A DNA stretch of 64,000 bases from Eledone cirrhosa (taxonomy: Eukaryota): NCBI GenBank assembly GCA_964016885.1, contig OZ024743.1, forward strand, positions 241,676,001 through 241,740,000, given 5' to 3'. Position numbers and translations under genes: made by a program. A model generated the notes under the pieces. It worked only from the letters and a program-made list of their open reading frames with translations. It was not told where the DNA came from and ran no database searches. How positions within the stretch are numbered: position 1 is the first letter of the stretch; the number at the start of each line of letters is the position of its first letter. Shown one piece after another: positions 18,448 to 43,565 of this stretch.

Positions 18448-18987
18448 ACGTGGGAAAGTAAAAAATCGGAGAATAGACCGTTAAAACATGTTTATTTAAA
18501 ACAGCACCTACGTACGTTTCGCCCAGTTGGGCTTCTCAAGAGCATAAATAATCACAAGTGTTCCTTATATTGCTCGGAAAGAGTTTTTGGGGTTAACCCC
18601 AAAAACGCTTTCCGAGCAATATAAGGAACACTTGTGATTATTTATGCTCTTGAGAAGCCCAACTGGGCGAAACGTACCCCCAAAAACTCTTTCCGAGCAA
18701 TATAAGGAACACTTGTGATTATTTATGCTCTTGAGAAGCCCAACTGGGCGAAACGTACGTAGGTGCTGTTTTAAATAAACATGTTTTAACGGTCTATTCT
18801 CCGATTTTTTTACTTTCCCACGTGCTTACGCTCTGCTAACTCTCTAGCCCACTAAATATTAACACTTCGAATATTTAATACTGCCGGCACTAGTATCGAG
18901 CACCTTTGGCATACGCTACTTGGCAAATAACTCTATGTATCACCTATCCTCCCCTTTTTTCTCTTTCTCGATACGTAAATACTGTGT
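18448..18987 (+). mobile_element. Fold-back plus partial-tandem element in (TA)n, Penelope-like pLTR architecture
   Basis: Inverted arm 18448-18594, direct units 18595-18677 and 18678-18823, unique 3' extension. Hammerhead-like motif ttgagaa-gccc-aact-gggc-gaaa-cgtacg-ta. Confidence 0.75.
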
Positions 18988-19059
18988 ATATATATATATA
19001 TATATATATATATATATATATATATATATATATATATATATATGAATAAAATAAGAATA

Positions 19060-19898
19060 TGTGGGACATATACAGGAAACTCACAACTCGGAAGAGACAG
19101 GCACTTGGACATTTACCGCTCATCTGCTCATTCTGTGGATCATTATAGTTCGGGTCTCCGAAAGACATGACTTTTCACCACAAGTGTTATTCGGAGTGAA
19201 AACATAACGTATGACAACAAAAAAAGGCCCAAATATCTACACCCCCATATGGGACAGGAAAATTGCTACAATCGAAAACAACACAGAAATGTGGGTAGGT
19301 AACCGTAATATGAATAAATAAATAAATTTCATTAATACAAGTTTGAACAATCACCATTAATAGGAAAGAGACGTAACAGAGTGACCTAACTAAGTCAGCG
19401 GCTGAGTCACAAAATAATGAGGCGGAGGCTTGAAGGAAAGTTGGTAGGTAGGGTATTATTGAGAACCGAAAGAGGGGGATACAAACATAGATAGATGTAG
19501 AGGGATATATAGATAGATAGATAGATAGATAGATAGATAGATAGATAGACAGATAAATACATAGATAGATAAAGAGAGGGAGAGAAACAGAGATTTTAAA
19601 ATTAGGCCTCTATGCGTTTCAATGATAATATCGTTCATAAAACACGTGGGACATTTACAGGAAACAGAAAATTAAGAAGAGACAAGCACATGGATAACTA
19701 CCCCTCAACTGCTGTTTTCTGCAGATCAATATAATTTTGGATGCTTCCAAAGACAGGGCTATTCGCCACCAGGTCATCAATAGTATCCAAGGGAAGATAA
19801 CTATTCGGGATGAAAAAACAACGGGCGTACAAGAAAAAAAACCATATCGATGGAAAATTGCGACATTCGAAAGCACACAAATGTGAGTAGTAACCTAT
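19060..19898. repeat. Two diverged direct copies of an unclassified ~250 bp repeat (19060-19310, 19646-19898)
   Basis: Shared anchors gtgggacat.tacaggaaac, aagagaca.gcac.tgga, ccatat..ggaaaattgc.aca.tcgaaa, aaatgtg.gtag. Confidence 0.65.
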
Positions 19899-20233
19899 GC
19901 GGGTATATATATATATATATACATATATACATTTATATATATATACATATATATATATATATATATATATATATATATATATATATATATATACATATTC
20001 ATATATATATATATATATATATATATATATATATATATATATATATATATACATATTCATATATATATATATATATATATATATATATATATACATACAT
20101 ATATATATATATATATATATATATATATATATATATATATATATATATATATATATATATATATATATATATATATATATATATATATACATATTCATAT
20201 ATATATATATATATATATATATATATATATATA

Positions 20234-20864
20234 TAAAATAAAGTTAAATAAAAAGTCAAATAATTAAAATTTAGCTTCGTTTATTACTGCTATATATATT
20301 TCATTGAGAGCCATCTTTGGCTGTGACCACTTCAGGCAGTTTGAATTAGTATGGTATAGACAAGTACATATGTTGTTGAGGTGTATAATATTGTCAATAC
20401 TCTGATATGCCCAGTTCCTGGTTGGGTTGTTATTTCACTGAGGAACTGGAATCATGAATTCAAACAAACGAATTTCAGTGTCAGTTCTGACCAATGAGAG
20501 GAGAAGAGGACCTTCGACACTGAAATTCGTTTGTTTGAATTCATATGATTCCAGTTCCTCAGTGAAATAACAACCCAACCAGGAACTGGGCATATCAGAG
20601 TATTGACAATATTATACACCTCAACAACATATGTACTTGTCTATACCATACTAATTCAAACTGCCTGAAGAGGTCACAGCCAAAGATGGCTGTCACTGAA
20701 ATATATATAGCAGTAATAAACGTAGCTATATTTTAATTATTTGACTTTTTATTTAACTTTATTTTACACTACTCCGGAGTAATCAAACCAACCTGCGCAC
20801 TTTGTCGAGTGCTCCAGTCTGCATACTGCGGTGTTGGTATACAACCAACATAAACTCAAAATCT
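20234..20864 (+). mobile_element. Fold-back Penelope-like pLTR element in (TA)n
   Basis: Arms 20234-20482 and 20516-20765 are slightly diverged inverted copies, followed by a ~100 bp 3' extension. Contains a hammerhead. Confidence 0.8.
20660..20714 (+). ncRNA. Type I hammerhead ribozyme motif
   Basis: actgc-CTGAAGA-ggtcacagcc aaagat ggctgtcact-GAAA-tatata-TA-gcagt: 5 bp stem I, long stem II, palindromic stem III. Confidence 0.85.
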
Positions 20865-20890
20865 ATATATATATAAATATATATATATAT

Positions 20891-21670
20891 GCAAAAGTTC
20901 TATTTAAAGTTGTTGGGATACAACAAGTAAATATTTTTATAATTGATATAAAGCACTCGACAAATTTTTGGAGTAGATATACGATATTAATAAATGGAAA
21001 CTATATTTATAAAACCATATTTATTTCATTATACATATTTCAGGGATACCACATTAAATTATGGTATGCCTTCATCATTCATGAATATTGATACTTATAT
21101 TTATATTTTTATTATTCATTTCATATAAATTTTTAACTCAACTTAATATGACATGACGTAAAGTTGTCACTGTCCCCCCCCCTCTCTCTATATAGTATTT
21201 CTCTCTCTTGAGTTTTTCTTTCTATATGATGACTTGATATCTCTCTGTTGCTTTCCTTTGTTTTTCTTATTCCTTCCTTTTCTTTCTTTTTTATTTCCTC
21301 CTATCTTTATCTATCTCATTCTTTTCTCCATACATTTCTCTCTCTCCGATATTTCTCCAGGTTTTCATTCTCTTTTCTTTCTCTCTCTCCGTCTTTGTTC
21401 TTTTCTCTCTCTCCATCTTTTTTCTTTCTCTCCGTCTTTTTCTAATTGTGCTTAACACTATGACTTATTATATAAACAAATCACTATCCAGACAGCCTCC
21501 AAAAGTAATGGTTGTATTTTAAAAGGGTACGTCAAACCTATTTGTAAAACTGTTATATATTGAATTTTGTCTGATGAAGGCATACCATAATTTAATGTGG
21601 TATCCCTGAAATATGTATAATGAAATAAATATGGTTTTATAAATATAGTTTCCATTTATTAATATCGTAT
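20891..21670. mobile_element. Inverted pair of pLTR-like fragments (20891-21077 minus, 21458-21670 plus) around a CT-rich spacer
   Basis: 20979-21077 is the reverse complement of 21572-21670. (TA)n lies on both outer sides. Same family as 28190-28530. Confidence 0.75.
21565..21625 (+). ncRNA. Type I hammerhead ribozyme motif
   Basis: ttttgt-CTGATGA-aggcataccata atttaa tgtggtatccct-GAAA-tatgta-TA-atgaaa. Confidence 0.75.
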
Positions 21671-41832: not shown

Positions 41833-42456
41833 AGGTTTGTTGGTTCACCACTGGATAGAATTGGTCATTCCGTATGGTCAATCTTGATGTAATATTATGG
41901 AGAACGTAATGCAGCTGACCCGTCTTCATTTGTATAGTTGGTGGTGCGAATACGGAGTTAATTATTATAAATAAAATAACAGGAGGCTGGAGTTGTGTAA
42001 ATCCATGAAAGGTTTATTATACTAAGATCATTTCAATGACCGGGTTCCGTATGAATCCGGTGATATCATCAGGTATTCGAAATATAACAAAGGAACATAA
42101 CAGATAAAATCCATGGGTCCGGAAATCAATCTTCTTTTTTCTTTTTTTTTTCTCTTTGACGGAGAGGTGGTAGTACATTATAAGCCTTCGCCCCCTCACC
42201 AGATGGTCATTAGTAGACTGAGTTGCCATCACTTGAGGGCGACTGACCGAGGTGAAAGCAGCTAGTTGGTCAGTCGTCCTCTTTGTCTTTGATTTTCGGA
42301 CCCATGGATTTTATCTGTTATGTTCCTTTGTTATATTTCGAATACCTGATGATATCACCGGATTCATACGGAACCCGGTCATTGAAATGATCATAGTATA
42401 ATAAACTTTTCAAGGATTTACACCCGTCCAGCCTCCTGTTATTTTATTTATAATTA
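41833..42456 (-). mobile_element. Fold-back pLTR-like element in (TA)n with two hammerheads
   Basis: Arms 41964-42130 and 42289-42455, with an extension at 41833-41963. Confidence 0.8.
42342..42399 (+). ncRNA. Type I hammerhead ribozyme motif (mirror copy at 42019-42076 minus)
   Basis: atac-CTGATGA-tatc accgg attc atacg gaac ccggt catt-GAAA-tgatca-TA-gtat with palindromic TGATCA. Confidence 0.82.
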
Positions 42457-42517
42457 TATATATATATATATATATATATAAATATACACGAGTGTGTATG
42501 ATTGTGTATAGAAGATT

Positions 42518-42770
42518 ATATTAATAAAAGTATTCCAACGTTGTCTGATTTACCCGTTTTATTTACAATCCTTTAAAATTATAATGATATTATAATGAAA
42601 TAGTATGGTAGAATATTAAATGTTAAGTGTTAATTGAACTGTTAAGTCTTCAATTAACACTTAACATTTAATATTCTACCATACTATTTCATTATAATAT
42701 CATTATAATTTTAAAGGATTGTAAATAAAACGGGTAAATCAGACAAAGTTGGAATTCCTTTTATTAATAT
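42518..42770. repeat. AT-rich fold-back in (TA)n, no ribozyme core seen
   Basis: Arms 42518-42638 and 42649-42770. Confidence 0.85.
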
Positions 42771-42874
42771 ATATATATATATAAATATATATATATATAT
42801 ATATATATATATATATATATATATATATATATATATATATATATATATATATATATATATATATATATATATAT

Positions 42875-43268
42875 AACAGAGTTTTGTAGCTTGCTTGAAG
42901 CAGTTGAATAGAAAACACCAATTTAAATTTCAAAGACAAACACAATGCGTGATGAAGATTGTTAAATTGCCAAGATAACCAAAGAATCTTACCTTAGCTA
43001 ATTTAATAATCCCATATATTTTCGGGTTTAAAAACCCTTTTCAAGGGAGTAACCCTATAGGGGACTTAAAAATCTGCTCCCATACAAACAAGTCTATCTG
43101 ATCGATTTTTAAGTCTCCTATAGGGTTACTCTTTTGATAGTGGGTTTTTATATCCGAAAATATTTGGAATCGTTAAATTTGCTAAGATAAGATTATTTTG
43201 TTATCTTGGCAATTTAACATTCTTCATAATGCATTGTGTTGGTCTTCAAAATTTAAATTTGTGTTTTA
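42875..43268 (-). mobile_element. Older diverged fold-back element with a variant hammerhead-like motif
   Basis: Arms 42912-43074 and 43104-43268. Minus strand reads tccc-TTGAAAA-gggttt tt aaaccc-GAAA-atatat-ggga. Confidence 0.65.
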
Positions 43269-43387
43269 TATATATCTATATATACACACATATGTGTGTG
43301 TGTGTGTGTGTGTGTGTGTGTGTGTGTGTGTGTGTGTGTGTGTGCGTGTGTATAGGATATAATATATATATATATATATATATATAT

Positions 43388-43565
43388 ATATAGAAGAGCT
43401 TCTACAGGATAAGAACTGTTTCATTCGTGAGAACGTGAGAAATCATCAGAGCTCCCTGATGATTTCTCACGAGTGAAACAGTTCTAGTCCTATAGAAGCT
43501 CTTCTATATTAAAACTGTTATACTCTGCTATGTATTGAGTACCTTACTTACTGTGGTTACTTCCT
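43388..43565 (+). mobile_element. Mini fold-back made of two back-to-back hammerheads plus a 3' extension
   Basis: Plus 43449-43501 reads gagctcc-CTGATGA-tttctcacgagt-GAAA-cag..TA-gaagctc. Mirror copy at 43394-43454; axis gagctc. Confidence 0.8.

Follow-up and report, generated by a model that had tools for sequence, protein, structure and literature searches.

Penelope-like elements (PLEs) of the Hydra clade are already known as retroelements that insert into (TA)n and carry a tail on one side only (PMC8557442; PMC3846280). In a PLE of the Poseidon clade, the tail is delimited by two internal sites at which reverse transcriptase (RT) starts in vitro (Frangieh et al. 2024, PMC11167929); these were mapped in that one other clade, with no conserved signal, and Craig et al. 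(PMC8557442) call for an in vitro system for the choice of PLE start site. The fold-back sequences dealt with here lie in a window of 64,000 nt from Eledone cirrhosa (assembly GCA_964016885.1, contig OZ024743.1, positions 241,676,001 to 241,740,000, forward strand) and are truncated, inverted PLEs. A first-pass annotation had noted that fold-backs of otherwise unrelated families share a motif, TYGAGYRC, near their (TA)n junctions, and had proposed it as a conserved cis signal for recognition by RT or endonuclease. That the families have such a signal in common is supported. TYGAGYRC is the 3' strand of a conserved, predicted bulged stem, RCUC-N ... N-UN-GAGY, and the stem covaries; the motif carriers that could be traced to an open reading frame (ORF) match the Hydra clade in their sequence features; and the ends of copies fall at two fixed points with a hairpin close on the 3' side of each, the signal being present mostly twice per element and not once.

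All 11 motif sites given in the annotation are found at their coordinates and on their strands, ten as exact matches and the one at 31218 with one mismatch, with 22-83 nt between their end and a (TA)n array. They represent eight families, the same-family pairs being 20953/28460, 32258/35271 and 36643/43535; three copies (35271, 36643 and 38070) are solo ends, without an inverted arm in the window. Exact matches across the window are weakly enriched (17, against 9.3 in shuffled sequence, with 2 of 100 shuffles reaching 17). Seven of them are additional to the earlier list: that at 41653 is a true site and the other six lie at least 281 nt from TA.

The bias of strand and position expected of a signal near (TA)n was checked out of sample on 1 Mb taken elsewhere in the same 3.0-Gb genome, as 100 stretches of 10 kb at even spacing, which contain 2350 TA junctions. 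At 40-79 nt from these junctions TYGAGYRC is oriented toward the array in 56 cases and away from it in 8 (p=5.6e-10), while the background at 120-299 nt is 7 toward in about 176,000 positions. The motif differs in this from control microsatellite junctions, where the corresponding counts are 7 and 3 for CA, 0 and 0 for GA, and 0 and 0 for trinucleotide repeats. The 67 hits at 20-119 nt of TA fall into 26 clusters, 16 of which are not in the window.

Covariation was examined in 2.04 Mb of DNA (random stretches, query-selected loci and the window), which yielded 438 fold-backs, 197 of them with a tail of 30-260 nt. Anchors were set by sequence only: counting from the short end, the first CTC in 25 nt and, after it, the first N-T-N-GAG-Y; 74 of the 197 tailed fold-backs had both. 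They formed 21 clusters, one of which proved to be the second hairpin of another family and was dropped, leaving 20 families for the count. An earlier search that demanded pairing served for discovery only and was kept out of this test. The pair under the bulge is Watson-Crick in 20/20 families (UA in 10, CG in 8, AU and GC in one each; shuffle mean 8.3) and the outer R:Y pair in 17/20 (AU 10, GC 7; shuffle mean 9.2), with the next three inner pairs at 17/20, 16/20 and 15/20 (shuffle means 10.1, 4.9 and 6.9). In the 10 families absent from the window covariation is kept, at 10, 8, 9 and 9 of 10. The position beyond the 4-bp stem is unpaired (2/20), slid-anchor controls were null for pairing, and the inner span of the hairpin ranges from 7 to 69 nt across families. 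The signal as first described, an 8-mer, is thus conserved but not linear, the strict motif fitting only 9 of the 20 families, and the ctct(a/g)ct said to precede it is indeed present, as its base-pairing partner. Two variants, L182:9516-9652 and L086:7703-7964, are readable with a 1-nt or a 3-nt bulge, both U-first. Kink-turn and selenocysteine-insertion (SECIS) readings of the hairpin were rejected by the pairing pattern, since GA pairs with UC and not with GA (taking the two motifs as usually defined).

The identity of the carriers is clearest in family A, represented in the window by the fold-back at 18448-18986 (+), an inverted short arm and a long arm with a 163-nt tail that form the 3' end of a Hydra-type PLE. 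Its hairpin 1 lies at 18830-18903 (+; 5' strand 18830-18834, motif 18896-18903), downstream of a hammerhead-like core of U3-A8 type read from the sequence at 18731-18761 (+). Family A copies continue upstream into a C-terminal GIY-YIG endonuclease. Three have a frame of 927-928 codons, which in locus L151 gives 910 amino acids (aa) from the first methionine, and this single ORF with RT and GIY-YIG endonuclease, together with a partial tandem pseudo-long-terminal repeat (pLTR), an inverted 5'-truncated copy and a one-sided tail, is the structure of an endonuclease-containing PLE. A Pfam scan of the 910-aa ORF returned no family, and a homologue search with its endonuclease portion gave no scoring match among longer proteins; the best matches of its predicted structure are telomerase RTs. 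Features of the Hydra clade are RWK near the N-terminus (R38-W39-K40; R in 38/43 and W in 42/43 aligned rows), DKT in place of DKG (D120-K121-T122 in L151 and L153, D-R-T in L152), a CxCX5C linker (C769, C771, C777), and preferred insertion into (TA)n. The endonuclease lacks CCHH, and CxxC (C866, C869) and CxH (C894, H896) flank its E and N. Neptune, marked by a CX2-5CxxC linker and an endonuclease CCHH that are not in family A, was rejected for this family, as was Naiad, whose endonuclease is N-terminal. The protein (L151:2730-5459) also has two long low-confidence inserts, at residues 481-595 and 681-764, which recall those of rotifer PLEs (PMC3846280).

The Hydra assignment was made by motif features and is fully shown for family A only. 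Families E, F, L021 and L100 are linked to a Hydra-type endonuclease by endonuclease hits, and families C and I/J have a Hydra-like N-terminus only; B, K, L and the families named after 32332 and 41834 stand outside the ORF-traced set. The families had been taken as otherwise unrelated, which does not hold for the ORF-traced ones, given their common Hydra-clade features. Three motif-free families of the window (H, M and N) are linked to a Neptune-type endonuclease with the CX2-5CxxC linker and CCHH. Canonical hammerhead cores were found by pattern in B, C, L and I/J, and the U3-A8 variant in A and F; U3-A8 in place of the C3-G8 core is known from PMC4209133. An Rfam scan of 16000-46000 gave 87 matches, all below gathering score and uninformative, with no hammerhead hit. 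Within family F the core is U3-A8 in L037, and the older relatives L100 and L076 have a C3/A8 mismatch. Near 91.48 Mb and 437.20 Mb of G000 C1 family F is arrayed head to tail, repeating about every 3.5 kb, probably as full-length tandem copies.

In tandem copies the tail is the 5' UTR (untranslated region) ahead of the ATG, and read-through copies show what lies past each end. From the short end to the start of the hairpin 1 stem the distance is 8 nt in the median (standard deviation 3.5), with tails of 71-182 nt. Past the long end a canonical hairpin 2 stands at 6-11 nt in 8 of 12 read-through families, namely A, E, F, C, the 32332 family and three families outside the window; in the 32332 family a read-through tandem copy has it at 32844-32859 (-), beginning 7 nt past the long-end position. 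Hairpin 2 had been forecast for F, C and I/J ahead of the search, and was canonical in F and C and degenerate in I/J. Among 30 family A copies picked by their endonuclease, 27 could be scored: 14 had the long end, 11 the short end and 2 neither. The end pairs of single insertions in random DNA and the window were 48 long-short, 1 long-long and 0 short-short. TA-alternating sequence of at least 3 nt begins 10/21 short sites, against a background of 7.7%, and 11/21 have at most 1 nt of TA microhomology. Arm divergence within insertions is lower than between them in F (0.051 and 0.118, n=20) and C (0.044 and 0.060, n=3) and not in A (0.027 and 0.022, n=10), so the comparison over these three families does not show a single RNA template. 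At 30168-30364 a TA array at the short start site stands between a copy of the family E tail and its arm, which suggests TA expansion or re-insertion there.

The same hairpin was sought by eye in the six novel Hydra consensi of the supplement to Craig et al. (PMC8557442). Three of the six have strict hairpins: Hydra-2_Amil (coral) and Hydra-2_Ajap (sea cucumber) at their end, and Hydra-1_Ajap as two in tandem ahead of the ATG. Six strings of 9-10 letters occur in that supplement at nine places, four of them Hydra termini and five inside the consensi of other clades. Literature searches that took in few subscription papers or Repbase reports, and text without figures, turned up no account of the hairpin; it is not described in the excerpts of PMC4209133, of bioRxiv 10.64898/2026.07.22.740005 or of the supplement text of Frangieh et al.

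Several points weigh against taking the stem as a conserved start-site signal of these elements. The 123 of 197 tailed fold-backs that lacked an anchor were left out of the pairing test; they include Neptune-linked families, mutated copies and mis-set ends. Families being related, the shuffle p-values overstate independence, and the bulge U and the GAG letters were themselves search anchors; selection also capped the short-end offset at 25 nt. Thermodynamic folding gives both key pairs p>0.5 in only 9/21 sense and 5/21 antisense folds, and G.U against A.C stands at 3 to 2, so that neither strand is clearly favoured. Hairpin 2 is degenerate in 4 of the 12 read-through families (I/J, K, the 41834 family and one other), and I/J keeps a fixed long end despite this. 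Of the published consensi, Hydra-1_Amil has only a relaxed form, and by eye Hydra-1_Obim and Hydra-1_Crog have none. Up to 20 of the 48 long-short pairs may come from ascertainment, without which the count is 28/29 (p=1e-7). Hairpin-free families pair long-short too, in 26/26 cases, so a tail does not in general require the hairpin; unequal ends are a general feature, which Hydra-type elements mark with it.

With these points counted, we consider it probable that the stem, carried mostly twice upstream of the ORF of Hydra-type PLEs, in each place binds the element's own RT on the RNA and determines one start site, about 7-8 nt 5' of itself, which would extend to these elements what the Poseidon PLE does in vitro (PMC11167929). 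The hairpin next to each inserted end is left out of the DNA, which fits a template-side signal, and recognition by RT on the template appears the likeliest role. Since that hairpin does not enter the inserted DNA and insertion is into plain (TA)n, the endonuclease is unlikely to recognise the signal at the target. The endonuclease would nick both strands of (TA)n; one nick would prime at the hairpin-1 site to give the short arm and the other at the hairpin-2 site to give the long arm, a few bases of UA pairing would help, and the two cDNAs would join head to head in a fold-back whose tail length would be the distance between the hairpins. More weakly, an arginine may read a U.A-U triple formed by the bulge U, in the manner of TAR and 7SK; the conserved R38 and R602/R604 are candidates for this arginine, as a lead only. 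A fully programmed form of twin priming, with an RT dimer seated on two arginine-sandwich hairpins of one RNA and each protomer starting 7-8 nt upstream on opposite target strands, is a tentative extension that we lean against.

The geometry, in which the hairpin 3' of an end is never copied there, would be the same if the hairpins directed RNA cleavage or 3'-end formation 6-11 nt upstream and RT copied two RNA species from their free 3' ends. Two free RNAs should, however, also yield short-short and long-long pairs, against the 48/49 that are long-short, and the RT of a Poseidon element starts internally on unprocessed RNA (PMC11167929); we think such processing unlikely. Nor do we give much credence to a role in single-stranded DNA or on the antisense strand, in which the hairpins would signal endonuclease action or resolution and a longer intermediate would be cut back to the two ends. 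The strand tests above leave room for this, the tail of the D. virilis element is needed for endonuclease recognition (as cited in PMC11167929), Craig et al. (PMC8557442) ascribe the tail to endonuclease resolution, and an antisense template has been proposed (PMC3846280); yet insertion is into plain (TA)n, the TA-like microhomology of short sites fits priming, and the internal RT starts of Poseidon in vitro coincide with the tail ends (PMC11167929). It is very improbable that the hairpins serve translation, export or packaging from the 5' UTR, with ends set by nearby UA microhomology and the link to hairpins incidental: in the tandem copy both do fall within the 5' UTR, shortly ahead of the ATG, but both ends keep their 6-11 nt offset while tails vary in length, and half of the short sites (11/21, above) have next to no microhomology. 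As to a chance or post-hoc pattern in AT-rich repeats, which the modest window-wide enrichment alone would allow, it is already refuted by the out-of-sample bias of strand and position and by covariation in families absent from the window; the hairpins of coral and sea-cucumber elements also speak against it.

The remaining hairpins of the window are, as hairpin 1, those of family B at 20771-20812 (+; fold-back 20236-20863), family C at 20953-20974 (-; 20891-21667) and its relative D at 28446-28467 (+; 28194-28530), family E at 31179-31225 (+; 30365-31261), with more copies at 30201-30237 (-) and 41256-41303 (-), family F at 32240-32265 (+; 32123-32311) and, in a solo end whose outer pair is broken, at 35253-35278 (+), family I/J at 43522-43542 (+; 43393-43564) and, as a solo end, at 36643-36663 (-), and family L at 38256-38283 (-; 38216-38880). 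The 32332 family has its hairpin 1 at 32377-32404 (-), which the strict motif misses, with a tandem copy at 32912-32939, and a further family, whose link to a Hydra-type endonuclease is in L021, at 61805-61876 (-). Family K has a hairpin in a solo end at 38070-38097 (-) and a second copy at 41653-41680; no K short end was seen. The motif had been reported absent from 41833-41963, which is correct for that copy but not for its family: in the fold-back at 41834-42454 hairpin 1 (41903-41958, -) keeps its 5' strand and has lost the GAGY strand by a private deletion, and other copies have the full hairpin.

By contrast, the fold-back of family H (36253-36550, -), linked to a Neptune-type endonuclease, is hairpin-free, as are the Neptune-linked fold-backs at 42481-42766 and 42875-43266. 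Short hairpin-free tails (35-45 nt) have another motif in common, roughly AATGCTTCAAG, at 42875-42912 (-) and 34686-34720 (+) in the window and in L021, L115 and L214; it may be the Neptune-type counterpart of the hairpin. Elsewhere in the window decayed copies of long interspersed nuclear elements (LINEs) with endonuclease and RT ORFs lie at 2335-12000 and 39409-40800, partly nested and inverted, and LINE C-terminal remnants at 26818-27728 and 57103-58028.

The hairpin pair bears on two questions of PLE biology, the choice of start site and the one-sidedness of the tail. The minimal module is 16 nt long and comes with built-in compensatory mutants; if it acts as proposed, moving the hairpin should move the start site. 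It also provides a structure-based marker for classing non-coding PLE stumps, which are abundant in this genome. Were programmed twin priming true, the inverted arm, the asymmetry of short and long ends and the tail would all follow from one minimal RNA signal, which could also load foreign RNA onto an integrator that targets (TA)n.

Recruitment of a cognate RT by RNA structure is familiar from LINE 3' stem-loops and hepadnavirus epsilon, and priming on both strands leads to inversion in L1 twin priming; L1 differs in that its second priming falls at variable internal sites, whereas here both sites are fixed and marked by hairpins. The stem has, in secondary structure only, the layout of an arginine sandwich, a bulged pyrimidine after a Watson-Crick pair with an A-U two steps up. 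It agrees with TAR and 7SK SL1 (Pham et al. 2018, PMC6189040) in having a paired base, a bulged U and then paired G, A and G, and the U could triple with an A-U pair two steps up (U23.A27-U38; U40.A43-U66 in those RNAs); it differs in that the loop closes the other side of the bulge, there is no homology, and the triple and arginine contact are conjectural here. With the Hydra clade of Craig et al. (2021, PMC8557442) the elements share the single ORF of less than 3 kb, RWK and DKT, the CxCX5C linker, lack of CCHH, the (TA)n target, the inverted truncated copy and the one-sided tail; tails are 71-182 nt here and 30-40 there, no tail hairpin is described in the excerpts of that paper, and family A (910 aa) differs in its long inserts of low confidence and its U3-A8 hammerhead core. 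A functional parallel is the Poseidon element PAc (PMC11167929), with two internal RT start sites in an AC-rich stem-loop: there too the two sites bound the tail, and the signal is found in the region where pLTR and ORF adjoin, 3' of the ribozyme. PAc belongs to another clade, and the excerpts describe for it no duplicated module conserved across families; the elements reported here have a separate hairpin for each site, with the offset fixed.

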